Source: Candidatus Aenigmatarchaeota archaeon (GTDB taxonomy: Archaea; Aenigmatarchaeota; Aenigmatarchaeia; GW2011-AR5; JAHLMP01). From it: DNA of 64,000 nt. The DNA lies in assembly GCA_018920315.1 (NCBI GenBank), contig JAHLMP010000001.1:68206-132205 (forward strand), read 5' to 3'. Positions 20,550-63,596 of this stretch are shown here, one piece after another (within the stretch, counting starts at the first letter, position 1; each line of letters opens with the position of its first letter). Both the position numbers and the translations under genes were made by a program. The notes below the pieces were generated by a model that saw only the letters and a list, made by a program, of their open reading frames with translations, made no database searches and was not told the origin of the DNA.

Positions 20550-21005
20550 CTATAACTTAACTTTTGATAATTTTTCAACATATCTTTGCAATTTGTTTAA
20601 TTCATTTTCAAGTGCATTGAGAATTCTTTTTGTTTTTTCTTCTTTTACTACATTTTTATAATTTTCAAATTCTTTCATCACTTCTTTAACCTCACGCTCT
20701 ATTTTCAGAATAACTATCTTCTTTAATGCAGAAAGTAAATCCCCTTCTAGCTTTACATAAATTTTTCTATCTCCGCTCTTTTTGAATTTTCTAACAACCC
20801 CGAGAAGTTCGAGAAAATCAATCGACAAAGAAATAGATCCTAAAGAATAATTTGTCTTCTTACTTATTTCTTGTAGTGATAAAGGTCTTTTCTCAGCTAA
20901 AAGAGAAGCAAGTATTCTTCCATGAACCTCTGAATAACCCAAAGAGCTTGTAGCTCTTGCAAATATAGAATAAATCTTTTTCTCTATTTCTTGCTGGGAT
21001 GACAT
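20550..21005 (-). CDS. winged-helix transcriptional regulator (GbsR/MarR-like)
   Basis: HGRILASLLAEKRPLSLQEISKKTNYSLGSISLSIDFLELLGVVRK is a wHTH pattern. It is divergent from the radical-SAM gene. Confidence 0.55.
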   Translation of the reverse strand: MSSQQEIEKKIYSIFARATSSLGYSEVHGRILASLLAEKRPLSLQEISKKTNYSLGSISLSIDFLELLGVVRKFKKSGDRKIYVKLEGDLLSALKKIVILKIEREVKEVMKEFENYKNVVKEEKTKRILNALENELNKLQRYVEKLSKVKL

Positions 21006-21056
21006 AAAATAAAGATAAAAATAAACTTTTTAAATTTTTAAAAAGTATTAAAAGTT

Positions 21057-22760
21057 ATGAATAAAAATCTTGCGAAGAAAGGAAGCAAGAATAGAGAAAA
21101 AAGTGCGAAAACTATAAGAAAAAAAGAGAAAAAAGTTCTTGAAAAATCGAAAAAGTTGGCAAAGTTATCAAAAATAGAAAATGAGTTGGAAAAAGTAGAA
21201 AGAATTTTAGAGCACACGCAAAGCATTTGTCCAGAATGCTTTAAAGAAAGAAAGATTCATAAAATAAACGCTAGCATTGTTGAAGAAAATGGAAAGATTT
21301 GGATTAAGAAGCGTTGTGAAAAACATGGAACCTTTAAATCAATTGTTTTCAACGATTCAAAGCTTTATTATAAATGGATAAAGTATAAAGTAGATGGAAA
21401 GCCTATAAGATATAAAAGCCCTAAAGGAGAGATAAAAAGCATAGATGCTACCCCTTCCCTTAGTGGAAAGCTATATGATTTGCATCTTTCTCAATCTGTT
21501 TTAACAAATTTATTGGTAACTAATAGATGCAATCTAAGATGCTCATATTGCTTTATGAATGCTGGAGCAAGTGGTTATGTTTATGAGCCAAGCTTAGAAG
21601 ATTTGAAAAAAATTATGAAGCAAGCGAGAGAAGCAAAACCAGTGCCTTCAAAAGCAATCCAGATTACTGGTGGCGAACCAACTGTAAGAGATGATTTAGT
21701 TGAAATAATAAAAGCTGCAAGAGAGCTTGGTTTTAGACATGTGCAGCTAAATACAAATGGAATAAAACTTGCAGAATCCTTAGAATATTGCAACGAAATT
21801 GTAGAAGCAGGAGTTAATACTATTTATATGAGTTTTGATGGTGTAACTAAGAATGCAAATCCATGGATTGAAGAGAATAAAAAAGCAATTGAAAATTTAA
21901 GAGCAGTGGATTTTCATAGCGTAGTTTTAGTTCCTGTTGTTACAAAAAGCAATCTTTTAGAGATGCCAGAAGTTGTTAAATTCGCTTCTCGCAACATAGA
22001 TGTTATTCGTGGCATTAACTTTCAACCACTATCCTTTTGTGGAAGATTGCAAAATGTTACAGAAGATTTTATAGAAAAGCAACGCGTGGATTATGTTGAC
22101 TTATTTAAAACTTTGGAAAATGGATTAGATGGTCAAATAACTATAGATGATTTCTATCCTGTGCCATTTGTTTATCCAGTCTCAAAGCTTGTTGAAAAAT
22201 TAAAAGGCTATGGACAAGTAGAATTTACAGCCCATCCAACTTGCGGAGGAGCTACCTATGTTTTTGTTGAAAAGCAACGCGATAGCATAAAACTTACTCC
22301 AATTACAAGAATTGTCGATGTAGAGAGCTTGATGGAATTCATAAAAGATTTATCAAAAATAGAAGGAAGCTTTTTGAAATTAAGGATAGCGCTTGCCTTT
22401 CTTAGAAATATAAATAAATATGTGAAAGATGAAGGTAAGTTTTTGAAAAAATTACTTTGGAAAGCTTTGGTTTCTGGAAGCTATGAAGGCCTTAGAGAAT
22501 TCCATTATAATACGCTTTACATCGGCTCTATGTGGTTTCAAGACCCTTGGAATTTAGATTTAGAAAGATTAAAGAGATGTGTTGTGCATTATGCAACAGA
22601 AGAAGGAATTGTACCATTCTGCTCTTATAATGGCTTAGGTATTGGCGAGTTGCTCAGAAGAAAGTACTCTATACCAATAGAAGAATGGGAAAACAAAACT
22701 GGAAGAAAATTAGAAGATGACTTGTGGAAAGGTGGAGTTATAACTCAAAGACTAGAATAA
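21057..22760 (+). CDS. radical SAM enzyme with N-terminal Zn-ribbon (COG1964-like; possibly tetraether lipid synthase Tes/GDGT-MAS family)
   Basis: CNLRCSYCFMNA is a CxxxCxxC radical-SAM cluster motif. The upstream CPECF...CEKHG ribbon and the 567-aa length fit this class. The Tes assignment is from memory of family architecture only. Confidence 0.75.
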   Translation: MNKNLAKKGSKNREKSAKTIRKKEKKVLEKSKKLAKLSKIENELEKVERILEHTQSICPECFKERKIHKINASIVEENGKIWIKKRCEKHGTFKSIVFNDSKLYYKWIKYKVDGKPIRYKSPKGEIKSIDATPSLSGKLYDLHLSQSVLTNLLVTNRCNLRCSYCFMNAGASGYVYEPSLEDLKKIMKQAREAKPVPSKAIQITGGEPTVRDDLVEIIKAARELGFRHVQLNTNGIKLAESLEYCNEIVEAGVNTIYMSFDGVTKNANPWIEENKKAIENLRAVDFHSVVLVPVVTKSNLLEMPEVVKFASRNIDVIRGINFQPLSFCGRLQNVTEDFIEKQRVDYVDLFKTLENGLDGQITIDDFYPVPFVYPVSKLVEKLKGYGQVEFTAHPTCGGATYVFVEKQRDSIKLTPITRIVDVESLMEFIKDLSKIEGSFLKLRIALAFLRNINKYVKDEGKFLKKLLWKALVSGSYEGLREFHYNTLYIGSMWFQDPWNLDLERLKRCVVHYATEEGIVPFCSYNGLGIGELLRRKYSIPIEEWENKTGRKLEDDLWKGGVITQRLE

Positions 22761-39983: not shown

Positions 39984-41945
39984 TTAGCTTGTTAATGTCC
40001 CATTTGCATATAGCTTTATAAAGTAACCTGCATTTCTATTTACTTGCCATGCCTCACCAGGATTCATCCTTCTCTCAGAAATCTTCCATGTATTTCTCCA
40101 GAGCTCTGCGCGGCAATGATCAACTATGTAGAGCGTTGAATTAAGGGTAAAGTTGAATGGACAAGTTACTCTCCAACTCTGTGCCACAAGCAATTCTGTT
40201 GTTCCGTCATGCGTTACTTCTGGTTCACAGTCTGCTTTGCAGCTTGTTGGTGTTTCCCCCTTTTCCCACTCACAAATACCATTACCACAATGCTCTTCCC
40301 ATGGTTCTGGTTGCTGCTCGCTTAAGCATTGATAAAATGGATTGAATGTTGCCATTGAGCAACTCAAAACTTTTTGTATAAATTTCTGAATTATTTCAAG
40401 CTTGGCCCAAATTCCCTGAACTTCTCTATCTATTTTTGTTTTCCATTCATCAATTTCTTTATTATAATCTTCTATTTTTTCTATCTTTTGCTCTATTGTA
40501 TTTATTTTATTTTGCATATCCTCTACTTTCTCTCTCAAAGCTTTGAAATCAGCTCCCAAATGCTTAAACCTATTTTGCTTTGAAACATCTCTTGCAATCG
40601 CCCAAACTCCTTCGCTCGTAACTTCATCATATTCTTCTATGTCGAACCATCCTTCTGATGTTTGATTAACTATGAGCCATGTTGCTGCTTTTGCTGCTTT
40701 TTCATCTTCTCCCAACATCTCTAGAACCATTTTTGCATATGCTGTTGTTTGTGCATCTGGTGTATTTGGGTTACTTTCATCAGTCGGCCACCATCCTTCT
40801 TCTCTTTGTCCATTGATCAATTTTTCCTTTGCTAAGTTTACCAAATCTGTATATTTTCCTGTTGTTTGCATAGCTTCTATTATTCCTACAAGTCCAAGGT
40901 AATAATAAGTTATTGTATTATCGTTTATATCAAAATATCCTCCGCCTATTTTCTCTTTCATCAATTCTGCCATTGCATCTGCTTCTAATCTATAATCTAT
41001 TCCCGGATATTCGCTTAGTTTGTAGAGCGCTACTATCCAATCTCCTACATCCCAAAGAGCGACAGCATTTATTCCTTGAGATTGTCTTAAATTAAAAATC
41101 TCATTAGCAATTGCTCTGGCTCCTTTTATAGGGTCTGTAGGATTAAAACAATTTCTTTTACCTTCGTATCTTTGCTTTGCTAGATTTGCTATCATATCAT
41201 CATTTTTCAATAATGCGAGATGTGCTAAGAATAATATGTCCTTGTTGCTATCACATCCACTATTACTTTCAGTCCCAGGAGAATAACAAGTAAGTCCTGT
41301 TTCAGCGCAGGCTGAATTATAAGTTGGTGCGTGTGTCTTTATATACTGCAAAGACTTTTCCATTGCTTGCATGTAATCTTCATCTTCTGTAATCTTGTAA
41401 GCATAGTAGAGTCCCATGGAAGTTACTCCTGCCAAATTTGTGCAGGAAGGGCTTCCCTTAGGCCAACCCCAACCTCCATCAGAGTTCTGATTATTTATTA
41501 ATCTATCAGCTCCTTTGATAATTGATTGTGTTGCATTCAATTGTGTCGAGGAATACTCAACAAAAACTATTGTTGTATAATATCCTATCGGATTCTCTGG
41601 ATAAATTGTGAAAGTTGTTGTATAAATTCTACATTTCGCTGTGTTTGGATTTTCTTTTATACATTCTCCTGTAGTTGTTTGTCCTAATGCTTTCAAAATA
41701 AAAGATGTGCCATTTGGATAGAAAACTCTTGCTTTTACAATCGCATTATTTAAATTTGCTACATCATCCGGATCGCAAACCAAAGCACAAACTCTTACCT
41801 CTGTTCCATGAATATCTGAAAATGTTTCTGTAACTATTTGATTATTTACAACTTCCCACTTTGAAGCTACATAAGGTATATTATCCGCTATCGCTATAGA
41901 TGATATTAGAAGCAAACCTAAAAATAGTTCAAATATCTTTTTCAT
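39984..41945 (-). CDS. 653-aa secreted protein: beta domain + prenyltransferase/terpenoid-cyclase-like alpha-alpha toroid repeats + coiled coil + conserved C-terminal domain
   Basis: A signal peptide; repeats NQNSDGGWGWPKG, GQREEGWW and NQTSEGWF; a coiled coil; and the C-terminal CRAELWRNTWKISERRMNPGEAWQVNRNAGYFIKLY, shared with the 419-aa protein. Confidence 0.65.
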   Translation of the reverse strand: MKKIFELFLGLLLISSIAIADNIPYVASKWEVVNNQIVTETFSDIHGTEVRVCALVCDPDDVANLNNAIVKARVFYPNGTSFILKALGQTTTGECIKENPNTAKCRIYTTTFTIYPENPIGYYTTIVFVEYSSTQLNATQSIIKGADRLINNQNSDGGWGWPKGSPSCTNLAGVTSMGLYYAYKITEDEDYMQAMEKSLQYIKTHAPTYNSACAETGLTCYSPGTESNSGCDSNKDILFLAHLALLKNDDMIANLAKQRYEGKRNCFNPTDPIKGARAIANEIFNLRQSQGINAVALWDVGDWIVALYKLSEYPGIDYRLEADAMAELMKEKIGGGYFDINDNTITYYYLGLVGIIEAMQTTGKYTDLVNLAKEKLINGQREEGWWPTDESNPNTPDAQTTAYAKMVLEMLGEDEKAAKAATWLIVNQTSEGWFDIEEYDEVTSEGVWAIARDVSKQNRFKHLGADFKALREKVEDMQNKINTIEQKIEKIEDYNKEIDEWKTKIDREVQGIWAKLEIIQKFIQKVLSCSMATFNPFYQCLSEQQPEPWEEHCGNGICEWEKGETPTSCKADCEPEVTHDGTTELLVAQSWRVTCPFNFTLNSTLYIVDHCRAELWRNTWKISERRMNPGEAWQVNRNAGYFIKLYANGTLTS

Positions 41946-42129
41946 TTCTCCACCTTACTCCTTTGGGTATTTACTCTTGCTCGATGCTTATGGCAGGGCT
42001 TATAGAAAGATTTAAAAATGTTACTTCCTAATAGTAAATAATGCCCTAAGCGTCGAGTAGAGCAAGGCTCTCCAACGGATGCCTTGTTATAGCGCCCCTC
42101 CTCGGCGCTCTCCTTGAGAAAGGAGTATG
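41946..42129 (-). promoter_or_regulatory. GC-rich structured leader element, copy A (184 nt, abuts ATG of 653-aa gene)
   Basis: It is identical to copy C over 71 nt (42059-42129) and over the last ~30 nt. It has three local hairpins plus a long helix. See findings. Confidence 0.6.
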
Positions 42130-45308: not shown

Positions 45309-45929
45309 TTATCTTGGAACTATATTGATTGTTATCGCATAGGTTCCTGGAATTGCGTTCGGCTTCATTCCTATCTTTACACCACAGAACTTCTGGATCA
45401 TTCCTTCACCAAGTTGGTCGGGTGCTGTTAGTTTGCAAGTTCCGCCACTACAATTCCAATATTGCTGGCTTTTTTGAAGTGGTATTGGAGTAGAGTGATC
45501 GCATGTTTGTGGTTCTTGATCACTTGCTTGATATGTTGCCCATTTTACTTCAAGTAATGACAAGCCGTCAAGAAGATCTTCTGGAAGTATATACTCCCAA
45601 TTGAAATTTATATAGTCCCAACTTCCTTCAACTGGTAGATTGTTTTTTATATAGAATTTATAATCAAATGTTTTGTTATCTCCTCCAACTATGCTTCCAG
45701 TAGGATATGTTAGTGTACATTGTCCGTAATTATCTTTGCCACAAGATTTCCATGTTGAACCATCATCTGAAATTACTAAGGATTGTGTAACATTTACAGT
45801 TCCTGTTATAATTCCGTAATAAGTTAGCAATGCTGCGCTTGCGATTCCTCCAAGAGCGATAAGCATTAATAGAAGCGCTGATACTTCCTTTCCAAGTATT
45901 ACAAATCTCTTAGATAATAATCCTTTCAT
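45309..45929 (-). CDS. 206-aa secreted/anchored protein, unknown family
   Basis: The N-terminus KRFVILGKEVSALLLMLIALGGIASAALLTYYGIITGTVNV, a motif shared with the 343-aa protein. Confidence 0.6.
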   Translation of the reverse strand: MKGLLSKRFVILGKEVSALLLMLIALGGIASAALLTYYGIITGTVNVTQSLVISDDGSTWKSCGKDNYGQCTLTYPTGSIVGGDNKTFDYKFYIKNNLPVEGSWDYINFNWEYILPEDLLDGLSLLEVKWATYQASDQEPQTCDHSTPIPLQKSQQYWNCSGGTCKLTAPDQLGEGMIQKFCGVKIGMKPNAIPGTYAITINIVPR

Positions 45930-47379: not shown

Positions 47380-48459
47380 TTACACTGCCTTACCAATTAT
47401 GTATATCTTTCCGCTGTCGAATGTTCCTATGCATGGTATTGGATATTGAATCTTGAATTCTATCTCTAGCAATCCTCCATTTGTTAGTATGTGCTCTAGT
47501 ACATCGTCATCATCATCTGGATCTGGCATAGGCACTGGAAGACCTCCGTAGCATGTTGGTCCTTTATACTCGGTTGAAACATCGCACATACTATTGGTGT
47601 TAGTATCATTCCAATAGTCGGATGTTAAATTATTTCCTACATTGCATCCATCGTTCTGGTTGTATTTGCTCATGTTTGTCCATCCCTGCCAGCTCTGCCA
47701 TGAAGTGCCTGACCATGCCCTGTACCACATGTATTTTTCTATTTCAAGAACATTGCTTGTTGGACACTTCGCTGCTCCAGTTGTGTCAAACAAATCAGTA
47801 CCTGCTATGAAAGTAAATAGGTTAACTCCTCCTTCTGCTGTGTTCTTTACCTTAATCTTGTTCAAGGAGTGAGCAACTCTTGTTACTGGATCCATAGGAC
47901 CAAATCTTATTGGTTGGCCATCACTTGTTGTAACTTGCATTCTCAACTCTGGGTTAAAGAACCACTCTTCGCTGTGCGTTGCGCTTGTTGCTACATTCTG
48001 AGAGTTGAAGACCTTCAAAAGAACTTCCATCGGACCATGCCAACTGTCTTCAACTGTTATTATTATCTTGAATCTCTTGTCTGTAGTGCTATTAACACGT
48101 CCAAGCCCGTCACAAAATATATTACCTAATGATATTTCGCTCGCCAAAGCCTCCTCATGTCCTCCGACAAAGGCCTTTACAAAGCCTATGTCTAATGCTC
48201 CGTTAGGGTCTCTTACTATAACATCATATATTATTCTCTCTCCTGTAAATGCATAAAGACTAGTTCTCCAATCCAATGGGTTAACCCCCGGTGGATTTGC
48301 TTGTGTTCCTATTTCTATATCTCTGTGATAAATACATATCGTTGGTGGCAAGTCGCCTGGCTGTGCTGATACTCCAACATCGCCAACAACTACATCAGCA
48401 AAAGCAGGCACTACTAGTAACAAACTTGCTAGTATCGCGAATAAAGCAAACTTTTTCAT
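47380..48459 (-). CDS. 359-aa secreted protein, paralog of the 447-aa protein
   Basis: Signal peptide FAILASLLLVVPAFA, and alignment with 42863..44206 over its whole mature length. Confidence 0.7.
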   Translation of the reverse strand: MKKFALFAILASLLLVVPAFADVVVGDVGVSAQPGDLPPTICIYHRDIEIGTQANPPGVNPLDWRTSLYAFTGERIIYDVIVRDPNGALDIGFVKAFVGGHEEALASEISLGNIFCDGLGRVNSTTDKRFKIIITVEDSWHGPMEVLLKVFNSQNVATSATHSEEWFFNPELRMQVTTSDGQPIRFGPMDPVTRVAHSLNKIKVKNTAEGGVNLFTFIAGTDLFDTTGAAKCPTSNVLEIEKYMWYRAWSGTSWQSWQGWTNMSKYNQNDGCNVGNNLTSDYWNDTNTNSMCDVSTEYKGPTCYGGLPVPMPDPDDDDDVLEHILTNGGLLEIEFKIQYPIPCIGTFDSGKIYIIGKAV

Positions 48460-48643
48460 TTCTCCACCTTACTCCTTTGGGTATTTACTTCTACTTGGCG
48501 CTTAGGGCAAAGCTTACAGAAAGATTTAAAAATGTTACTTCCTAATAGTAAATAATGCCCTAAGCGCCGAGCAGAGCAAGGCTCTCCAACGGATGCCTTG
48601 TTATAGCGCCCCTCCTCGGCGCTCTCCTTGAGAAAGGAGTATG
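48460..48643 (-). promoter_or_regulatory. GC-rich structured leader element, copy C (184 nt, abuts ATG of 359-aa gene)
   Basis: Same length and register as copy A. It has a perfect 12-bp inverted repeat GGCGCTTAGGGC/GCCCTAAGCGCC around an AT-rich 48-nt loop. Confidence 0.6.
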
Positions 48644-49230
48644 ATTTTTGAGAAATTTCGCAAAGGTTTTGCTCTTTCATTAATTCAAAAGAGCTATTCC
48701 CTGATAATTTTATTAAAGAATCGCTAAAACTTTGCGCCCCTCTTCCAATATTTTGCAACCTAGTAGCGATAAACATCATAATGAATACCTAACTATTAAC
48801 ATTTAAAATATTTACTACCTATACGTGAGTAATACAAACGCATTACATGTTACAATTGTAATGCGGTAAATTTTTGAGTATATTTGAAAATATTTTTATT
48901 ACTTTTAGATAATTACTTATGCTCTAAGAATTATCAATGAGAATTATCGAAAAGATTTTTAAGAGATTTTCTATAATTCTTGAGATTGCTATTTAGCTTT
49001 TTGGTAGGAGAAATAAGAGGTGGATTGAAGGACAGAGAAGAAGTGGAAAAGAATTATTAGCAAGGAAAATATTAAAAGCTCTGAAAAATGCATATTGCGA
49101 GCGATTGCCAAAGATTGGTATTATGGGAAAAGAATTTACCTTTTATCAAGTTTAGTTATATTCTTTATTCTCCCTATCTTAAACGGTATCTTAAATAATT
49201 ATGCAATCATGTAATTTTGAATTTTTATAA

Positions 49231-50526
49231 TCATTTTGAGCGATCTATTAGTAACCATTTCCAGAGAGGCGAGCATTTTATTTTCTTGCCGTTAATTTTG
49301 AGATCGTCTTCATAATCCCATGTAATTATCAAAAGATTTTTACAGCGTAAAAGCTTGCTCGCTTTTAGTAAAGCTTTGAGCTCTCGTTTCTCTATCTCAT
49401 CTTTTGCGCTAGCGTAAGTTACTTGAATCAATTGCTTAACTCTCAAGCCCTCTTTCAAGACAAAATCAACTTCGTTTTGTTGATAATCTTTCCAGTAGAA
49501 AATTTCTAGAGCATTAGAGAAGTAGCTTTTCCTTCTTAAAAGTTCTACTGCAACTACATTCTCAATTATCTTGCCAATGTCTTCTGACAATTTAAAGCCT
49601 ATAGCATTTACTATTCCTGTATCATTACAATAAACCTTTTTTGGTGCAATAAATTGTTCTTTTAGTTTTGGAGAAAACCTATTAATTATCTTTATAAGAT
49701 AAGCTTCTTCCATCCCATCTATCCAATCTTTTATAGTGTGCAAATCTTTTATTTCAAATATATTTTTCAATTTGGAGAGTGTTATTTCACAAGAAGAGTT
49801 TGATATGAGATACTTTGCAACCTCTTTAAATATAGATTTTTTCTTTATTTTTAGCCTTCTTATAATATCTTTCTCAACTATGTCTGAGAATATTCTTACT
49901 ATAATTTCCCTTCCAAGTAAATAAGCTTCTGGAAGACCGCCTATCCTTAAATAATCGTTAAGACTCTTCTTTACTAATGCTATACTCTTAGTTGAATAAA
50001 GATATTCTTTGCCAATTGCTACATTGTTATAATTTAAAAATTCATAGAAACTAAATGGAAATAAAGTGAAGTCTATATATCTTCCTGTTAATCTACTTGC
50101 AAGTTCTCCTGAAAGCAATCTTGAATTGCTTCCAGTTAATATTATTTTTTTCGTTCTTCTCAGCCTATTAACAAAAAGCTCCCAGTTATCGATATTATGT
50201 GGCTCATCAAGAATTATATGATCCACTTCTCCATATAATTCGTAAAAGCTTTGCAATAACTTTTCAAAATCTCTTGCATGAAATTCAGCTAATCTTTCGT
50301 CATCAAAATTTATGTACCCATAATTTGTCCCTTCAAAAATTTGCAATGAAAAAATGGATTTGCCACATCTTCTAATCCCTAAAACTACTAGTATATTTGG
50401 CGCAGAAAGATATTTTCTAAGCTTGCTTTTATCAACCTCTCTTTCAATTATCTTTGTTTTTTCAAACTTCTCTTTTATCTCTTCCCTTTGAGCTATTACA
50501 ACCCTTTTAATTTCCTCGGTTTCCAT
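49231..50526 (-). CDS. AAA+ ATPase with DUF4143-type C-terminal domain (COG1373-like), paralog 1
   Basis: Walker A GIRRCGKS, Walker B IILDEPHNI, and the C-terminal NEVDFVLKEG...KQLIQVTYA (PD-(D/E)xK-like pattern). Confidence 0.8.
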   Translation of the reverse strand: METEEIKRVVIAQREEIKEKFEKTKIIEREVDKSKLRKYLSAPNILVVLGIRRCGKSIFSLQIFEGTNYGYINFDDERLAEFHARDFEKLLQSFYELYGEVDHIILDEPHNIDNWELFVNRLRRTKKIILTGSNSRLLSGELASRLTGRYIDFTLFPFSFYEFLNYNNVAIGKEYLYSTKSIALVKKSLNDYLRIGGLPEAYLLGREIIVRIFSDIVEKDIIRRLKIKKKSIFKEVAKYLISNSSCEITLSKLKNIFEIKDLHTIKDWIDGMEEAYLIKIINRFSPKLKEQFIAPKKVYCNDTGIVNAIGFKLSEDIGKIIENVVAVELLRRKSYFSNALEIFYWKDYQQNEVDFVLKEGLRVKQLIQVTYASAKDEIEKRELKALLKASKLLRCKNLLIITWDYEDDLKINGKKIKCSPLWKWLLIDRSK

Positions 50527-50527
50527 G

Positions 50528-50572
50528 ATATTATATTCACAAACATTTTTAAAAAGTTTGTGAATATAATAT
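50528..50572 (-). promoter_or_regulatory. palindromic promoter/operator of paralog 1
   Basis: Perfect 17-nt arms ATATTATATTCACAAAC / GTTTGTGAATATAATAT flank ATTTTTAAAAA. The centre is 24 nt upstream of the ATG at 50526. Confidence 0.55.
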
Positions 50573-50597
50573 AATGTATTCCTTATCTTTTCATCAT

Positions 50598-51923
50598 TTA
50601 TCTAGGTAAAAGTAGCCATTTCCAAAGAGGTAAGCATTTTATTTTCTTTCCTTTAACTTTAATCTCGTCTTCATAATCCCATGTAATTAAAAGCAAATCC
50701 TTGCATTTCAGCTCATTGCTCGCTTTTATCAAAGCTTTTATTTCTCTTTTTTCAATCTCATCTTTACTTGAAGCGTAAGTTACTTGAATGAGTTGTTTAA
50801 TTTTTAGTCCCTCTTTTAAAACAAAATCTACTTCGTTTTGTTGATAATCTTTGAAGTAAAAAATTTCTGAATTATTGTATAAGTAATTTTTTCTTCTCAG
50901 GAGCTCTATAGCAACACAATTCTCCATTATCCTACCTAAGTTTTCCATAAACCTAAATCCAAGTAAAGTAAAGAAAGATATATCCATTAAGTAAACTTTT
51001 TTTGGAGATTTTTCTTGCGTTTTAACACTGAAAGAAAATCTTTTTATAAATTCGACCATTCTAACAATTTGAAAGTACTTCACGAATCTTTCTGTAGTTT
51101 TCAAGGGGGTTTCTAAAGTTTTACTAATATTTCTAATGTTTACTAAAGAAGATGGATTTGAAATTAGAAATCTTCCAATTGCTCTTAAATATTCATCTGC
51201 CCTTATCTTATATCTTTTCTCAATATCCTTAATAATAATTGTTTCCCAATAGCTCTCTACTATTCTTTTTCTTTTCTCCTCGTTCTTTTCTAAAACAATT
51301 TCAGGAAACCCTCCAATTTTTAGATACTCGATTATTAATTTTTTAAATAAGGAAGATTTCAAAAGAATATCTCTTTCAGAAATCTCAATATTGTTAAAAA
51401 TAAGAAATTCCTTAAAGCTAAGAGGAAGTATTTCAAAATTTATACATCTACCGGCTAAAATAGACTCAAACTCTTCTGCCATTAATTTTGCGCTACTTCC
51501 AGAAATAATTATATTTGCCTCGTTTCTTTCATGCAAACTTCTAACAAACATTTCCCAAAATTTAACTTCCTGAATTTCATCAAGAATAATTAATGGCTTT
51601 CCTTTTGGTTGAATAAACTCTTTATAAGCTTCATAAACATTAATCAAAAAATCTTTATTCAAGTTTGTTGGAAATTTCATTTCCTCGAAGTTTACATATA
51701 GTACGTTAGATGAGTCCTTTAATTTAGAAATCTCTTTGGCTATTTGCCTTAAGATATAAGATTTTCCAGACCTTCTTATTCCAAAAATGCTGATTATTTT
51801 ATTAACTCCTTCTAAACTAGAAAGAATTTCTTGAGTATATAAATCTCTCTTTATTCCAGTTTCTATTCCTTCGCCCCAAAAATTCCAACTCGAAAGAATT
51901 TCTATTATCTTCATCTTTTCCAT
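50598..51923 (-). CDS. AAA+ ATPase/DUF4143-type, paralog 2
   Basis: Walker A GIRRSGKS, Walker B IILDEIQEV, and the conserved C-terminus NEVDFVLKEGLKIKQLIQVTYA. Confidence 0.8.
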   Translation of the reverse strand: MEKMKIIEILSSWNFWGEGIETGIKRDLYTQEILSSLEGVNKIISIFGIRRSGKSYILRQIAKEISKLKDSSNVLYVNFEEMKFPTNLNKDFLINVYEAYKEFIQPKGKPLIILDEIQEVKFWEMFVRSLHERNEANIIISGSSAKLMAEEFESILAGRCINFEILPLSFKEFLIFNNIEISERDILLKSSLFKKLIIEYLKIGGFPEIVLEKNEEKRKRIVESYWETIIIKDIEKRYKIRADEYLRAIGRFLISNPSSLVNIRNISKTLETPLKTTERFVKYFQIVRMVEFIKRFSFSVKTQEKSPKKVYLMDISFFTLLGFRFMENLGRIMENCVAIELLRRKNYLYNNSEIFYFKDYQQNEVDFVLKEGLKIKQLIQVTYASSKDEIEKREIKALIKASNELKCKDLLLITWDYEDEIKVKGKKIKCLPLWKWLLLPR

Positions 51924-51930
51924 AAGTTAT

Positions 51931-51966
51931 TATATGACACAAAAATATATAAATTTGTGTCATATA
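51931..51966 (-). promoter_or_regulatory. palindromic promoter/operator of paralog 2
   Basis: Perfect 13-nt arms TATATGACACAAA / TTTGTGTCATATA flank AATATATAAA. The centre is ~25 nt upstream of the ATG at 51923. Confidence 0.55.
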
Positions 51967-52095
51967 TTAACCTTATTTATAAATAAAATCTAAAACTATC
52001 AGACGTAATTTCTTAGAGATATTTTCAGAGATCTTAAAATCTTAGTGTCATATTAATCCCGTAGCCAAAAATATTTAGATCTGAAATATTAAGCT

Positions 52096-53367
52096 CTAAG
52101 TTAGTAACCATTTCCAGAGAGGCGAGCATTTTATTTTCTTGCCGTTAATTTTGAGATCGTCTTCATAATCCCATGTAATTACAAGCAAATCCTTGCATTT
52201 AAGCTCTTTGCTTGCTTTGAGCAAGGCTTTGAGCTCTCGTTTCTCTATCTCATCTTTTGCGCTAGCGTAAGTTACTTGAATCAATTGCTTAACTCTCAAG
52301 CCCTCTTTTAAAACAAAATCAACTTCGTTTTGTTGGTAATCCTTCCAGTAGAAAATCTCAAGCAGAGCATTAGTTGCCTGTCTTCTCTTCAATTCTAAGA
52401 AAACACTGTTTTCCATGCTCCTTCCAATATTCTCTGAAAATCTTGAATATTTTTTAATGAAAAATGTATCCACCAACATAACTTTTCTTGGAGCTTTTAA
52501 TCTATACTTTATTTTTGGTGAGAAAATCTCAACAAAATAAGCGAATAATGATGTTTCTAAGTAATAAATATAGTTAGCAAGAGTGCTTTTTCCAATCTTA
52601 TATCCTAAAGACTGAAATGTGTTATACAAGCTGCTTATTGTTATATAAGTTGAATTTAGAAGAATTCTTACCAATTCTCTTACAAGTTCTCTATTTCTAA
52701 TCCTATACCTTTCTAAAATATCTCTTATTAAAAAAGTTTTGAAATACTCTTCGATCAATAAATATTTCTTTCCTTTTTCAGAAAGTACTATCTCTGGCAA
52801 ACCACCAAAATTTATGTATTCATTTAGCAAATTCAGAATTAAAGGCTCGCTTAACTTCTCTAATTCTTCATTTCTGAATTTTAAAAATTCTTTGAATGAA
52901 AGTGGGTAAAGCTCTATAGTTAAACATCTTCCCCTTAGCTCTGTTGGTATCTCTTTGCTAGAAAGTTTGGATGAAGAACCAGAAATAAAAATTTGATAAT
53001 TTCTTGTATCTAAAATTCTTCTAACCCATTTGCTCCAATTTGGAATATTTTGAATTTCATCTAGCAAAAGAATTAACCTCTTTCTTCCATACTCTTCTTT
53101 GAGCACTTCACTCAAATATGTAAGAGTTTTTATATCTTGTGGTATTCTTTCGTCCTCAAAGTTTATGTATAGAGTTTCTTCTTTTTTCATCTTCTTTGCT
53201 ATCCAAAACAAAAGAAAGGTTTTGCCAGTTCTCCTAAATCCTATTATAGGTATTGTTTTTATTACATTCCAATCTATGAATGCTGTCGGATCTACACATC
53301 TTTCTATTATTGGAGGTAATTCCCTTTCTCTCCACTCCTTCACTAAACTTTTTAATGTTTGTTTCAT
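52096..53367 (-). CDS. AAA+ ATPase/DUF4143-type, paralog 3
   Basis: Walker A GFRRTGKT and Walker B LLLDEIQNI. The track start at 53388 is TTG and lies inside the promoter palindrome. The ATG at 53367 (MKQTLKSLVKEW...) aligns with the other paralogs. Confidence 0.78.
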   Translation of the reverse strand: MKQTLKSLVKEWRERELPPIIERCVDPTAFIDWNVIKTIPIIGFRRTGKTFLLFWIAKKMKKEETLYINFEDERIPQDIKTLTYLSEVLKEEYGRKRLILLLDEIQNIPNWSKWVRRILDTRNYQIFISGSSSKLSSKEIPTELRGRCLTIELYPLSFKEFLKFRNEELEKLSEPLILNLLNEYINFGGLPEIVLSEKGKKYLLIEEYFKTFLIRDILERYRIRNRELVRELVRILLNSTYITISSLYNTFQSLGYKIGKSTLANYIYYLETSLFAYFVEIFSPKIKYRLKAPRKVMLVDTFFIKKYSRFSENIGRSMENSVFLELKRRQATNALLEIFYWKDYQQNEVDFVLKEGLRVKQLIQVTYASAKDEIEKRELKALLKASKELKCKDLLVITWDYEDDLKINGKKIKCSPLWKWLLT

Positions 53368-53377
53368 AATGTATTTA

Positions 53378-53411
53378 TCATAGTACAAAAATAAATATTT
53401 TTGTACTATGA
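53378..53411 (-). promoter_or_regulatory. palindromic promoter/operator of paralog 3
   Basis: Perfect 16-nt arms TCATAGTACAAAAATA / TATTTTTGTACTATGA with a 2-nt spacer. The centre is ~27 nt upstream of the ATG at 53367. Confidence 0.55.
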
Positions 53412-53518
53412 GAAAAATTTTGATGAAAGATCATTTACCTCTTTCAAATTTATGGAATATAGGCTCAACTCTTTACCAACATAAACTTTATAAAAACTTT
53501 ACCATAATAACAAAACAC

Positions 53519-54811
53519 TTAATACTTCGTTACCTTGTCTTTCAAAAACCACTTCCACAATGGCAAGCATTTTATTTTCTTGTCTTTAATTTTGATTTCA
53601 TTTTCATAATCCCATGTAATTACAAGCAAATCCTTGCATTTAAGCTCTTTGCTTGCTTTGAGCAAAGCTTTGAGCTCTCGTTTCTCTATCTCATCTTTTG
53701 CGCTAGCGTAAGTTACTTGAATCAATTGCTTAACTCTCAAGCCCTCTTTTAAAACAAAATCAACTTCATAATCATTTGAGTTGAAGTAAAATATCTCGTT
53801 AATTTTTCCTTCGAATTTTTTCTTCAAGAGTTGAATGGCTACTAAGTTTTCAATTTTTTTCCCAATATCTCTTGAGAATCTCGGCTCAATCCCAAAATAA
53901 ACATTATCAACTAAATAAACCTTAGCAGGGTATTGTGCTCTTTCACTATACTTTAGAGAAAATCTCTTCACAGGAAAAACAAAAAGAGCTTCTTCTACGT
54001 ACCTTAAGTAATTTGCTAAAGTCTTTTTACTAATTTTAAAACCAAATGATTTGAGTGAATTCTCAATTTTTGATATTGAAACATAAGAGGAAGAATTTGT
54101 TATACAATATCTGACAAAATAATCCATAAGTGCTATATTTTTAATTTTGAATCTTTCTATCAAGTCCTTGAAGAATATTGTAGCAAAATAAGTTCTTGCA
54201 ATTTCAAGTTTTTTATTTTTATCATCAGCCAAAAGAATTTCTGGATACCCGCCAAATTCAACATAATCTTTCAAAAGCCTTAAAATTTCTCCAGTTTTTG
54301 CTTCAGAAAATTCTTTTTCAATTTTGAATTTTTTAATTTCGAGAAATTCTCTGAAGTTGAAAGGAAAAATTATAAAAGAAATACATCTTCCTCTCAGCTC
54401 TGTTGAAATTTCTTTGCTTAAAAGTTTTGAAGAAGAGCCAGAAATTATTATTTTATATTTTTGAAGATTGTGTAAAGCTCTTATAAAAGAAGACCAGTTC
54501 TCAAGCTCTTGAATTTCATCTAAGAAAAGAAAGATCTTGCCTTCAAATAAGGAATTCACTTCTTTCAAAAATTCGGAAATCCCAACTTTTTTTGTTCTTG
54601 GATCAGTAAAATCCACGTAAACAACATTTTCTTTGCTGAATTTCTTCTCAAAAAGCTCTTTTATGAGTTGAAACATGAAGTAAGTTTTTCCTGCTCTTCT
54701 TGGTCCTATTATTGAAGCTATATGATTATTCATCCAAAATTTTATCTCTCTTTTAACTATGTTTTGTGGTAGCTCTTTCTCTTTCCATTCTAACAAAACT
54801 TCTCTTAACAT
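53519..54811 (-). CDS. AAA+ ATPase/DUF4143-type, paralog 4
   Basis: Walker A GPRRAGKT and Walker B LFLDEIQEL. The track start at 54877 extends through the promoter palindrome. The ATG at 54811 (MLREVLLEWKEKELP) matches the paralog N-termini. Confidence 0.78.
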   Translation of the reverse strand: MLREVLLEWKEKELPQNIVKREIKFWMNNHIASIIGPRRAGKTYFMFQLIKELFEKKFSKENVVYVDFTDPRTKKVGISEFLKEVNSLFEGKIFLFLDEIQELENWSSFIRALHNLQKYKIIISGSSSKLLSKEISTELRGRCISFIIFPFNFREFLEIKKFKIEKEFSEAKTGEILRLLKDYVEFGGYPEILLADDKNKKLEIARTYFATIFFKDLIERFKIKNIALMDYFVRYCITNSSSYVSISKIENSLKSFGFKISKKTLANYLRYVEEALFVFPVKRFSLKYSERAQYPAKVYLVDNVYFGIEPRFSRDIGKKIENLVAIQLLKKKFEGKINEIFYFNSNDYEVDFVLKEGLRVKQLIQVTYASAKDEIEKRELKALLKASKELKCKDLLVITWDYENEIKIKDKKIKCLPLWKWFLKDKVTKY

Positions 54812-54821
54812 AAAAGAAATA

Positions 54822-54854
54822 TAGGAAACAAAAATATATATTTTTTGTTTCCTA
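54822..54854 (-). promoter_or_regulatory. palindromic promoter/operator of paralog 4
   Basis: 13-nt arms TAGGAAACAAAAA / TTTTTGTTTCCTA flank TATATAT. The centre is 27 nt upstream of the ATG at 54811. Confidence 0.55.
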
Positions 54855-54983
54855 CAGGGAAATATAACTATATACACAAATATTCGAATATTTATATATC
54901 AAAATGCAAATTGATATTAAAAACATTCTACTATCGAAGCTATTACTTAAAATACGTGAAATTATAAAAATTGTGCGCTATCT

Positions 54984-56243
54984 TCAACTTAAAAGCCACT
55001 TCCATAAAGGCTTGAAAACAATTCTTTTATTCTTAACTTTAATCTCGTCTTCATAATCCCATGTAATTACAAGCAGATCCTTGCACTTCAGCTCTTCACT
55101 TGCTTTGAGCAAAGCTTTTATTTCCCTTTTTTCTATCTCATCTTTACCGGAAGCATAGGTTACTTGAATTAATTGCTTTATTTTCAACCCTTCCTTCAAA
55201 ACAAAATCAACTTCCCCACTCAAAGCACTAAAATAATAAATTTCACAATTCTTAAACCTTCTTTTAAGTTCAAGAAAGACAACATTTTCCATCAACTTCC
55301 CCCAGTCTGTAGAAAATCTTGGAGAAAAGAATTTTATTAAACCATTATCCACGACATAAACTTTTTTCTGTGTTTTTATAGTTTCTTTTACTTTTCTTTC
55401 AAACTTTTCAACAGAAAAAATCAAGAAAACGTCTTCCAACATTTTTACAAACTCTATTACAGTATTTTTTGAAATTTTAATCCCAGAAGATGTTAATATG
55501 TTTTGCAGCTTGGAATAAGTGTAGTAAGAAGAAAAATTTGAAACTAAAACTTTTGTCAAGAATTCGAGTGTCTTAATTTTTTTCACTTTAAACCTTTCAA
55601 CTATATCCTTGTAAAAAACACCATCTTTTATCGAAATTAGTAAATCTTGATGAAGATGTGGCTTAAGAACAGTTTCTGGAAAACCTCCTTTTTCAATATA
55701 TTCGTTTAGCATTTTAAGCAAAACCCCCCTTTCGGTATAAATTGAAAACTTATCTTCTTCAAATCTCTTAGCTCTGAGAAATTCCTTGAAAGAAAAAGGA
55801 AAAACAAAAACACCTATAGCTCTCCCCCTTAATTGAGTGGCAATTTCTTTGCTCAAAAGCTTTGAAGAAGAACCTGTGAGAAAAATTCTATAACCTCTGT
55901 CATAAAGTTCTCTAATACCAATTGGCCAATCTTTCACAACTTGTATTTCATCCAAAAACAAATTTTTTGGTTTTTCTCCATAAAGTTCTTGATATGCAGT
56001 AATCATATCATTGAAATTTTTGGCAGACGCACCAATTAGGTTTCCTCTTTCAAAGTTTATGAAAAGACAATCTTTCTTACCCATTTCCTTAATTTTTTGA
56101 TAGAGCAAGTAAGTTTTTCCACTTCTTCTAGGCCCAACTATTGTTACAAGATTATGCTCAGGAATTTCTATTTCCCTTTCTACCAAATCAGGAAGTTCAT
56201 ATTTTTCGAATTCTGCTATAGCCGCCTTGAATTCCTCTTTCAT
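54984..56243 (-). CDS. AAA+ ATPase/DUF4143-type, paralog 5
   Basis: Walker A GPRRSGKT and Walker B LFLDEIQVV. The track start at 56264 is TTG inside the palindrome, so the ATG at 56243 (MKEEFKAAIAEF) is preferred. Confidence 0.78.
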   Translation of the reverse strand: MKEEFKAAIAEFEKYELPDLVEREIEIPEHNLVTIVGPRRSGKTYLLYQKIKEMGKKDCLFINFERGNLIGASAKNFNDMITAYQELYGEKPKNLFLDEIQVVKDWPIGIRELYDRGYRIFLTGSSSKLLSKEIATQLRGRAIGVFVFPFSFKEFLRAKRFEEDKFSIYTERGVLLKMLNEYIEKGGFPETVLKPHLHQDLLISIKDGVFYKDIVERFKVKKIKTLEFLTKVLVSNFSSYYTYSKLQNILTSSGIKISKNTVIEFVKMLEDVFLIFSVEKFERKVKETIKTQKKVYVVDNGLIKFFSPRFSTDWGKLMENVVFLELKRRFKNCEIYYFSALSGEVDFVLKEGLKIKQLIQVTYASGKDEIEKREIKALLKASEELKCKDLLVITWDYEDEIKVKNKRIVFKPLWKWLLS

Positions 56244-56250
56244 AATGTAT

Positions 56251-56290
56251 AGTATAGTGGACAAATATTTAAATTTTTGTCTAATATACT
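56251..56290 (-). promoter_or_regulatory. palindromic promoter/operator of paralog 5 (imperfect)
   Basis: 15-nt arms AGTATAGTGGACAAA / TTTGTCTAATATACT (2 mismatches) flank TATTTAAATT. The centre is ~27 nt upstream of the ATG at 56243. Confidence 0.45.
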
Positions 56291-56296
56291 ATTAGG

Positions 56297-56395
56297 TTAT
56301 TTTTCCAAAAGCCACTTCCATAAAGGCTTGAAAACAATTCTTTTATTATTCACTTTAACTTCATCTTTGTACTTCCATCTCGATCTCATAAGATA
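56297..56395 (-). pseudogene. 3'-terminal remnant of a sixth ATPase paralog
   Basis: Reverse translation gives ...RWKYKDEVKVNNKRIVFKPLWKWLLEK*, which matches the last ~30 aa of paralog 5 (VKNKRIVFKPLWKWLLS). The nucleotide string ccacttccataaaggcttgaaaacaattcttttatt is identical to that around 54995-55030. No upstream ATPase body is present. Confidence 0.7.
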
Positions 56396-62735: not shown

Positions 62736-63023
62736 TCAGCCTAACAAATAGGCAAGAAGTAAGCAAATCGCTCCTATTAGATAAGTGAAGAAGTAGCCTG
62801 CAATAATTCTTGGTATTATTGTTTGCAATCTTTTATTTTTTGATAAAACGCTTTCAAACTTCTTTACGCCCGGAATTTTTAGTATTATTTTATGGATTGG
62901 TTCTACTACCTTTTCAGGAAGAATTAATCCTATTCCTAAAGCAACTAGAAATTGTGATCCAAAATCTGGAACAAAAAAATTCGTGAAAAAAAGCCCAATT
63001 GTAATTAGCACTTCTTTAAGCAT
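62736..63023 (-). CDS. small membrane protein, unknown function
   Basis: 95 aa with 3 hydrophobic helices. Confidence 0.35.
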   Translation of the reverse strand: MLKEVLITIGLFFTNFFVPDFGSQFLVALGIGLILPEKVVEPIHKIILKIPGVKKFESVLSKNKRLQTIIPRIIAGYFFTYLIGAICLLLAYLLG

Positions 63024-63215
63024 ATTTATTCAATTTTTAACCCTGAAATAAAAAGCTTTATTTGCAAATTCTGCAAGCTTAGATAGATTTTTAACCTCAG
63101 ATTTTTGCTTAGTTTTTCTATAAAATTGTAACTATCTAAAGATAGTTACAAATATTAAAATTTAAATATTTTAAAAACAATAAAGTAAGAATTAAAATTT
63201 GCAAAAGGTGAGAAA

Positions 63216-63596
63216 ATGGAAGATTTGAATCCAAATATACAAAATCATTTTTTATATGAAGGTTTGCCTGAGATTTATAACAGTGATCTTGCACAAAATT
63301 CATCTAAACTCAATAAAAATGAAAATTTCGCAAACGAAAATTGCATAAGTGATTTCGACTTAAGAATTCTTTTAGAAATAGCAAAGCAAGAAGAAGATAA
63401 AGGAAATTTTGAGCATGCTGCCGTAGCATATAAATTTGCTGATAGATTTGGTGATTATCTTAGATGCATGGACGTAGCGATAAGAATAGCTGAAGAAGAA
63501 AAAGATTATCATAGAGCAACTATACTGGCTGAGCAAATTGCAAGCGAAGATGTAGTAGAAACATATAGAAGGCTTGAGAGATTGAAAAGCATTTAA
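63216..63596 (+). CDS. hypothetical helical protein
   Basis: A 126-aa ORF with a clean ATG and an upstream GGTGAG. No motif is recognised. Confidence 0.35.
   Translation: MEDLNPNIQNHFLYEGLPEIYNSDLAQNSSKLNKNENFANENCISDFDLRILLEIAKQEEDKGNFEHAAVAYKFADRFGDYLRCMDVAIRIAEEEKDYHRATILAEQIASEDVVETYRRLERLKSI

Follow-up and report, generated by a model that had tools for sequence, protein, structure and literature searches.

Private palindromes at the promoters of an archaeal ATPase array

Five tandem genes for paralogous AAA+ ATPases in a Candidatus Aenigmatarchaeota metagenome-assembled genome (MAG) are each preceded by a private palindrome that straddles a TATA-like box at a near-constant distance from the start codon. 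The best explanation, which we consider probable, is that each protein binds its own operator across the core promoter and thereby regulates its own gene. The array lies in a window of 64,000 nucleotides (contig JAHLMP010000001.1, positions 68,206 to 132,205), the whole stretch of DNA that was analyzed. The host is a DPANN archaeon with a G+C content of ~30%. The palindromes are listed below, with each centre distance counted on the minus strand to the A of the best ATG, not to a mapped transcription start.

50524..50576 (-): paralog 1 palindrome, operator-like; 26-nt arms with 2 mismatches; core 50528-50572, arms ATATTATATTCACAAAC, central box TTTTTAAAAAT; centre 50550, with ATG 50526 24 nt downstream; top score of all palindromes in the window
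51926..51971 (-): paralog 2 palindrome, operator-like; core 51931-51966, arms TATATGACACAAA, box TTTATATATT; centre 51948.5, with ATG 51923 25.5 nt downstream
53374..53415 (-): paralog 3 palindrome, operator-like; core 53378-53411, arms TCATAGTACAAAAATA; centre 53394.5, with ATG 53367 27.5 nt downstream
54822..54854 (-): paralog 4 palindrome, operator-like; arms TAGGAAACAAAAA, 13/13 matches, 7-nt spacer and box ATATATA; centre 54838, with ATG 54811 27 nt downstream
56249..56292 (-): paralog 5 palindrome, operator-like; 17-nt arms with 2 mismatches, box AATTTAAATA; centre 56270.5, with ATG 56243 27.5 nt downstream

All five palindromes reported in an initial annotation of this DNA are present, and four of them extend or can be re-read slightly longer than first described. 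The spacing given there, with centres 24-28 nt upstream of the best ATG, agrees with the measured distances, and each palindrome does straddle a TATA-like box, in that its A/T-only centre lies ~26 nt from an ATG that lacks a Shine-Dalgarno motif. A palindrome scan of the full 64 kb required arms of 10 nt or more and allowed up to 2 mismatches and a spacer of up to 14 nt. The promoter palindromes took ranks 1, 2, 3, 4, and 7. Markov-1 simulations of 64 kb yielded a mean of 1.45 palindromes at the score of the weakest promoter palindrome and zero at the score of the best three, and simulation at intergenic composition (23% G+C) gave ~0.07 palindromes per 980 nt. A chance origin is excluded, because the five palindromes rank first to fourth and seventh in the window.

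The common ACAAA...TTTGT core described initially is found in all five palindromes, but it is specific to this array, and other clades of the family differ. The pattern ACAAA-N8-14-TTTGT is present nine times in the window against 1.66 expected, with five of the nine at the ATPase promoters. Outside the core the arms are private: the exact 13-nt half-site of each paralog occurs within the window only at its own promoter. Two shorter elements may represent additional half-sites.

54857..54863 (-): short GGGAAA element (plus strand) that may be a third half-site of paralog 4, inverted relative to the distal arm; weak in the window
52042..52054 (-): possible extra half-site of paralog 2; AATATGACACTAA, 11/13 arm matches, centre ~124 nt upstream of the ATG; may be chance

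The third half-site of paralog 4 is longer in its orthologs (loci L004-L006 and L008). A related motif, ACAAAA-N9-TTTTGT, with the same core as the promoter dyads, also occurs within paralogs 1-3 (49460-49480, 50821-50841, and 52313-52333). There the motif sits on QQNEVDFV codons of a conserved domain and is probably a coding coincidence.

Core promoters and start codons

Placement of the palindromes relative to the ATG suggests that the family mRNAs are leaderless. A Shine-Dalgarno-like 4-mer at -18 to -3 was present in only 3 of 95 archaeal family genes, compared with 7 of 33 other genes of the window. Other apparently leaderless genes of the window carry a TTTAAAT-like box at about -27. At the palindromes, the inner edge of the distal arm is purine-rich at the position expected for a B recognition element (BRE).

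Another promoter region in the window is also symmetric. At 21025-21046, ACTTTTTAAAttTTTAAAAAGT contains a perfect 10-nt palindrome, ACTTTTTAAA tt TTTAAAAAGT, between the divergent genes 20550-21005 (-) and 21057-22760 (+, radical SAM). Its centre is ~21-31 nt from both ATGs, and it looks like a symmetric bidirectional TATA promoter of two leaderless genes.

The array comprises the following genes.

49231..50526 (-): paralog 1, 431 aa; AAA_14 ATPase, winged helix, and PD-(D/E)XK-like domain (DUF4143); PDC-S01
50598..51923 (-): paralog 2, 441 aa; architecture as in paralog 1
52096..53367 (-): paralog 3, 423 aa from ATG 53367; listed TTG start 53388 over-extended
53519..54811 (-): paralog 4, 430 aa from ATG 54811; listed GTG start 54877 over-extended
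54984..56243 (-): paralog 5, 419 aa from ATG 56243; listed TTG start 56264 over-extended

The longer open reading frames (ORFs) listed for paralogs 3-5 begin within or upstream of the palindromes. They had been suspected of over-extension, and rightly so, as the internal ATGs fit both the N-terminus of the family hidden Markov model (HMM) and the orthologs. All five proteins match PF13173 (AAA_14; E 1e-31 to 1e-35), PF13635 (DUF4143; E 1e-15 to 1e-23), and, over nearly their full length, the PADLOC model PDLC04787 for PDC-S01 (E 1e-99 to 1e-106). On these profile matches, the array genes are members of PDC-S01 / COG1373, a single-gene candidate defense system. DUF4143 has been assigned to the PD-(D/E)XK superfamily (PMC3424549). 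PDC-S01 is reported to rank fourth in frequency among defense candidates across prokaryotes and to be enriched in Archaea; for most PDCs of the core defensome, PDC-S01 included, experimental validation is described as pending (PMC12988326).

The paralogs are ~44% identical overall, and their promoters and N-terminal parts remain distinct. Their 3' ends (49231-49500, 50598-50870, 52096-52360, 53519-53790, and 54984-55250) are far more alike, with 79-83% DNA identity over the last ~70 codons and a third-position identity of 0.69 there versus ~0.41 in the rest of the genes. This pattern points to gene conversion, which would homogenize the 3' ends encoding the C-terminal half of the nuclease-like domain. 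Because the C-terminal ~85 residues are near-identical in five proteins with five different operators, they cannot set specificity. The intergenic regions of the array measure 71-172 nt and contain no small ORF, and the first gene after each palindrome is an ATPase gene. The remains of one further copy lie directly upstream of the paralog 5 palindrome.

56307..56378 (-): remnant of a sixth paralog, 3' end only (...KPLWKWLLEK*), 87.5% identical to 54991-55062

Promoter dyads across the family

To place the array in context, we scanned representative genomes and collected 77 loci, mostly from archaeal MAGs of many phyla, with a few from bacteria; cultivated carriers include Nanobdella aerobiophila (P0057) and Nanoarchaeota YN1 (L073). 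Arrays of 5-7 tandem copies recur in several of these genomes. In almost all archaeal family genes, an A/T-only box at a constant distance from the ATG is flanked by an inverted repeat. A palindrome centred 20-32 nt upstream with a score of at least 8 was found for 50% of 110 family genes, compared with 3.2% of 316 control genes, these being non-family genes of the same loci. At a score of at least 10 the proportions were 33% and 0.6%, and the only two control cases at high score both came from one divergent promoter. The initial annotation had raised the concern that similar palindromes might be just as frequent upstream of unrelated genes; the survey shows that they are not. Among the strong cases, 40 of 63 dyads were centred 22-31 nt before the ATG, with a median of 26.25, and A+T made up 91% of the central 8-9 nt. 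Centres also cluster at 40-50 nt, perhaps because of upstream sites or short leaders, and some start codons are possibly mis-assigned.

Arm sequences varied widely between clades, and they did so in concert. At least 10 of 13 arm positions were complementary in 45% of 105 unique promoters, as against 5% of chimeras whose left and right arms came from different genes and 3% of shuffled sequences. These comparisons indicate that the two arms match gene by gene, i.e. that they co-vary. Clade-specific arm types included CACAAAC/GTTTGTG, TAGAAAGC/GCTTTCTA, GCGAA/TTCGC, AGAAAGC/GCTTTCT, GCAAAG/CTTTGC, GGAAACAAAAA, and GGGAAA, and a compensatory change converted CAAAC/GTTTG to CAAGC/GCTTG.

When promoters were sorted by protein similarity, the operator type tracked the protein clade across phyla. 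For paralogs 1, 4, and 5 of the window, orthologs from other genomes retain the same arms; those of paralog 4 recur at seven loci (L002-L006, L008, and L015), and the paralog 5 ortholog L070:5274 is near-identical over the last 60 nt before the ATG, with 2 differences upstream of or at the palindrome edge. In orthologous loci homology starts at the distal arm, as expected of a promoter. Promoter identity between genomes averaged 0.69 for pairs with 60-90% protein identity. Pairs within an array (n=54) averaged 0.48, which equals the background of 0.46, and had no arms in common. The gene-specific arms of the original proposal have thus held up on every side, matching within a gene, persisting in orthologs, and differing among co-resident paralogs. 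No neighbour other than a family gene was conserved around same-clade members in different phyla; because nothing else is conserved alongside, the gene and its operator would form an autonomous unit.

Some promoters contain more than two half-sites. A third, inverted half-site at -43 to -57 occurs in about one-fifth of archaeal promoters. Extra half-sites were detected in 19 of 58 promoters against 8.1 expected, which is of moderate significance (1 of 200 permutations reached 19); the convincing part is a cluster of 12 inverted extra half-sites at -43 to -57.

Two loci of the survey stand out for their host assignment. Genes and promoters of L001 (an Omnitrophota MAG) and L041 (a WOR-3 MAG) are 82% or near-identical to Aenigmatarchaeota loci, with L041 matching L040, TATA-type promoter included. 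This similarity reflects either mis-binning or a very recent cross-domain transfer.

Equivalent dyads in bacterial relatives

The family occurs in many phyla and both domains and moves between them. Plasmid homologs from Moraxella osloensis (L080), Enterococcus gilvus (pCR1A, L082), and Lactobacillus (L083), at ~29% identity, carry repeated half-sites or long dyads over their promoters. A further set consisted of 59 unique relatives at 27-37% identity from IMG/VR contigs, compared with 514 control genes. Most of these relatives appear to be bacterial, because sigma-70-like promoters and GGAGG ribosome-binding sites lie upstream. A dyad with a score of at least 9 was present within 120 nt upstream in 41% of the relatives and 4% of the controls. 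The dyads of the relatives lie across the -35 or -10 box of sigma-70-like promoters that were recognized by eye. For example, L104 has 16-nt arms around TTGATA-N17-TATAAT, and L143 and L136 are similar. The three-half-site layout is repeated in some bacterial relatives. Taken over these surveys, the dyad is a feature of the whole family that crosses domains, and is not peculiar to the window locus.

One bacterial homolog, L078 on the Treponema saccharophilum plasmid pTS1 (297232-298467), lies between hsdR and a DNA methyltransferase gene in a type I restriction-modification operon, the 'embedded' context by which PDC genes are nominated as defense candidates.

A winged helix within the ATPase

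The initial annotation held that the middle region of these proteins was plausibly a winged helix, and structural modeling bears this out with confidence. An AlphaFold model of paralog 2, built from an 82-sequence alignment, had a mean predicted local distance difference test score (pLDDT) of 92.7. It comprises an AAA+ core (residues 41-180), a helical lid (183-238), a canonical winged helix (243-312), and a nuclease-like alpha/beta domain (326-438) modeled as an alpha-beta-beta-beta-alpha-beta fold. The winged helix consists of a helix (243-254), a strand (259-261), two further helices (263-270 and 274-286), and two wing strands (290-293 and 308-312). The corresponding segments of the genes are as follows.

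50958..51218 (-): winged-helix segment of paralog 2, residues 236-322; proposed operator-reading domain
49597-49860, 52444-52713, 53882-54157, and 55323-55598 (-): equivalent winged-helix segments of the other paralogs

Modeled alone, the middle domain retained a pLDDT of 91.7, and its nearest folds were CzrA, SmtB, CadC, SqrR, MepR, MexR, SlyA, and the archaeal AbfR2, with TM-scores of ~0.6. In this comparison, the solved structures most like the domain are repressors of the ArsR/SmtB and MarR types, which bind operators. NCBIfam contained no match, and a PDB sequence search returned P-loop noise only. Sequence profiles on their own miss the winged helix, which is probably why it has stayed hidden within 'DUF4143'. 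The full-length model was closest to SSO1545 (2fna), followed by STAND proteins, RFC, and Orc1/Cdc6, which have in common an AAA+-lid-winged-helix plan.

A model for autoregulation

In the mechanism that we propose, each palindrome would be the operator of the gene downstream. Its A/T-only centre would serve as the TATA box, with the BRE at the inner edge of the distal arm, and transcription would begin at or a few nt from the ATG to give a leaderless mRNA. The encoded protein, in which an AAA+ ATPase is joined to a winged helix and a PD-(D/E)XK-type domain, would use the winged helix to recognize a half-site of ~11-13 bp. Acting as a dimer or larger oligomer, it would then occupy both half-sites flanking the TATA box, ~20 bp (two helical turns) apart from centre to centre, and in some relatives the third half-site just upstream would be occupied as well. 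One half-site per winged helix is suggested because the spacing is wide and variable and the third site is optional.

Occupancy would mask the BRE side and the stretch from TATA to the start, hindering recruitment of transcription factor B (TFB) and RNA polymerase. Because binding would cover both of these sides, repression is the expected effect, and the circuit would be one of negative autoregulation. The AAA+ part may supply oligomerization, possibly in a nucleotide-dependent manner, which would give ATP a role in binding. As each paralog has a private half-site, copies within the array would be independently regulated. The identity of the binder is suggested by the linkage of operator and gene across genomes and domains, from which we infer that the gene's own product is the reader.

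Several observations weigh against this model. About half of the family promoters fall below the palindrome threshold that we used, and part of the inner ACAAA/TTTGT symmetry may be a BRE-like element beside a symmetric TATA box. Foldseek searches with the isolated middle domain yielded weak E-values (1e-3 to 1e-2), and helix-turn-helix (HTH) or winged-helix matches to its sequence all stayed below threshold. The full-length model also resembles Apaf-1/CED-4 and RFC, and in STAND and many AAA+ proteins the post-lid winged helix is structural and does not bind DNA. Finally, operator similarity correlated with protein identity in every region (N-terminus, AAA, lid, winged helix, and nuclease) at a rho of 0.06-0.30, without singling out the winged helix. 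Shared ancestry dominates these values, and the correlation does not pin the reading domain to the winged helix.

Alternative explanations

Autoregulation has to be weighed against readings in which the palindromes serve another protein. A symmetric core promoter (BRE-TATA-inverted BRE) that fires both ways would generate symmetry for the TATA-binding protein (TBP) and TFB with no specific regulator. The window has an example between divergent genes (21025-21046), and the inner ACAAA of the ATPase arms lies at the expected BRE position. Yet arms of 13-17 nt are far longer than a BRE of 6-7 nt, they differ among paralogs that share one TFB, and they co-vary gene by gene. Upstream of each palindrome there is no divergent gene, only the 3' end of the preceding same-strand paralog. 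Bacterial relatives, which are without TBP or TFB, carry equivalent dyads, so the symmetry is no property of TBP/TFB promoters as such. We consider this reading improbable; at most it accounts for the inner ACAAA/TTTGT, not for the private arms or the bacterial cases. We give as little weight to a separate host transcription factor that would bind the palindromes in place of the ATPase. Although dyad operators over the BRE and TATA box are the usual mode of archaeal TrmB and Lrp repressors (PMC4158304, PMC2995911), here the operator moves with the gene across phyla and into bacteria with no other conserved neighbour, and the five operators of a single array would require five host factors.

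The palindromes could instead act as nucleic-acid structures, either a DNA cruciform or an RNA hairpin that hides the start codon or that terminates or stabilizes the transcript of the upstream paralog. In this tandem, same-strand arrangement, each palindrome lies 25-170 nt downstream of the preceding stop codon, and the arms co-vary as stems do. However, the 81 mismatches were not skewed toward G:U (11 were of G:T type, 16 of A:C type, and 54 of other types), and stretches of 7-11 nt of pure A/T make poor hairpin loops. The dyad stands equally far from the ATG in single-copy genes whose upstream neighbours are unrelated, and third half-sites and dyads split around a bacterial -35 or -10 box suit protein binding better. 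There is no tRNA or Rfam family in the window, and for that reason a known structured RNA offers no explanation either. The likelihood of a structural role seems slim. Slimmer still is the case for recombination or mobility sites resembling integron attC or dif, through which tandem arrays would be built. Such sites would fit the recurrent arrays of 5-7 copies, the movement of the family between phyla and domains, and the gene conversion at 3' ends. But all units belong to one gene family, unlike the diverse cassettes of integrons, and the site keeps its place relative to the ATG and TATA-like box, not to a cassette end. It is carried by single-copy genes too, homology between orthologous loci starts at the distal arm in the manner of a promoter, and no recombinase lay consistently beside the gene in our neighbourhood comparison. 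Assignments as an integron/attC element, a replication origin, or a terminator were rejected in view of the single-family units, the lack of a Cdc6/Orc match, and the lack of G:U bias, the first of them without an integrase screen of the whole window.

Comparison with known systems

By analogy, the C-protein/C-box circuit of type II restriction-modification systems is the closest functional counterpart to the autoregulation proposed here. There too, a defense-related gene has its own palindromic operator on the core promoter (PMC2632904, PMC2275141, PMC2175313). C-box sequences differ from system to system, which limits cross-talk, much like the private arms of the array, and C genes are often leaderless and under autogenous feedback, in parallel with our reading. 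C proteins are small, separate Xre-type HTH proteins that have been tested experimentally, whereas the putative reader here is a winged helix predicted within a 430-aa ATPase/nuclease-like protein. Membership of the locus in the C-protein/C-box group was rejected, since there is no separate small C protein gene upstream.

Archaeal repressors with dyads over the BRE/TATA region or the start site include TrmB/TrmBL1, the Lrp-type LrpA, MDR1, and Phr. The array resembles archaeal repressor systems in its dyad at the core promoter and, on our reading, in a winged-helix or HTH reader, the frequent autoregulation, and the proposed blocking of TBP/TFB or RNA polymerase recruitment (PMC4158304, PMC2995911). 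Half-sites of the known repressors are usually contiguous, ~10-11 bp from centre to centre, and beside the TATA box. Those of the array, in contrast, lie on both sides of TATA, ~20 bp apart, and the putative reader is fused to an enzyme.

Orc1/Cdc6 proteins and their origin recognition boxes (ORB; PDB 2qby) likewise combine an AAA+-lid-winged-helix protein with inverted repeats that flank an A/T-rich stretch by the protein's own gene. The array differs in having five sites within 6 kb at promoter distance and an extra PD-(D/E)XK-like domain, and the dyads of bacterial relatives lie on sigma-70-like promoters. Membership in Orc1/Cdc6 was rejected; there was no Pfam Cdc6/Orc match, and the resemblance is at the level of fold only, with 2qby ranking 20th in Foldseek. 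Toxin-antitoxin operons, BrxR/CapW, and RptR (PMC12255303) resemble the proposed circuit in that a repressor on inverted repeats at their own promoter keeps defense or toxic genes low. Those systems have a dedicated regulator or antitoxin, unlike the one gene and one polypeptide here. The SSO1545-type AAA+ ATPases (PF01637; PDB 2fna) provide the best full-length structural match (AAA+ and winged helix) and are also a multi-paralog archaeal family of unknown function. They belong to another Pfam family, with PF01637 matching our proteins only below threshold, and have no DUF4143 nuclease-like domain.

The searchable full-text literature contained no description of promoter dyads or DNA binding by the DUF4143/PDC-S01 family, and in the searchable literature we found no mechanism, regulation, or experimental validation of PDC-S01. 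The proposed circuit is of a known kind, and its novelty would lie in autoregulation by a winged helix embedded in an enzyme, with half-sites placed around the TATA box and conservation in both domains.

Other features of the window

Other products encoded in the window include an RNA polymerase subunit B of the unsplit Rpb2 type, a GatE-like protein, and a GTPase of archaeal type. These, together with the 100% identity of paralog 2 to a Candidatus Aenigmatarchaeota MAG protein, place the host among the DPANN archaea. Downstream of the array, ~450 nt (48780-49230) are without a convincing ORF. This segment includes a G+C-richer palindrome at 48837-48867, ACCGCATTACA-N9-TGTAATGCGTT, ~70 nt upstream of the ATG of a 107-aa ORF (48456-48779) that has its own TTTTAAAT box at about -27, and a second palindrome is present at 48940-48980. 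Two ORFs that look unrelated, 39984-41945 and 47380-48459, have near-identical upstream sequences at 41946-42005 and 48460-48519 (...GTAAATACCCAAAGGAGTAAGGTGGAGAA ATGAAA), and ORF 45309-45929 is preceded by a similar AAATACCCAAG...GGTGAG. These three upstream sequences appear to be a common leader and Shine-Dalgarno module, and the proteins of the cluster have no Pfam matches. At 63126-63151 a perfect 12-nt palindrome, TTGTAACTATCT aa AGATAGTTACAA, ranks sixth in the window and lies between ORFs 62736-63023 (-) and 63216-63596 (+).

Implications for the PDC-S01 family

The dyad predicts sequence-specific DNA binding by the embedded winged helix, autoregulation, and insulation between paralogs. 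These predictions would be simple to test, as a single locus already supplies five proteins, each with a defined cognate operator and with non-cognate ones. Half-sites on either side of the TATA box would be an unusual way to control an archaeal promoter. More broadly, the family, with roughly 39,000 PDC-S01 genes, may offer a large natural set of protein-operator pairs from which to derive recognition rules for winged helices or to develop orthogonal repressors.

A more speculative idea, which we regard as unlikely, is that PDC-S01 proteins sense or cut DNA in a sequence-specific and ATP-driven manner, such that the half-site would represent the specificity of the whole ATPase-nuclease. If so, the tandem paralogs, none sharing its half-site with another, would together provide a repertoire of specificities against invading DNA, and the gene-converted common C-terminal module would be a shared effector. 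The promoter copy of the site would couple expression to the level of free protein, for example through derepression upon titration by foreign DNA. Promoter dyads would then provide a computational read-out of target specificity for a very common uncharacterized defense candidate.

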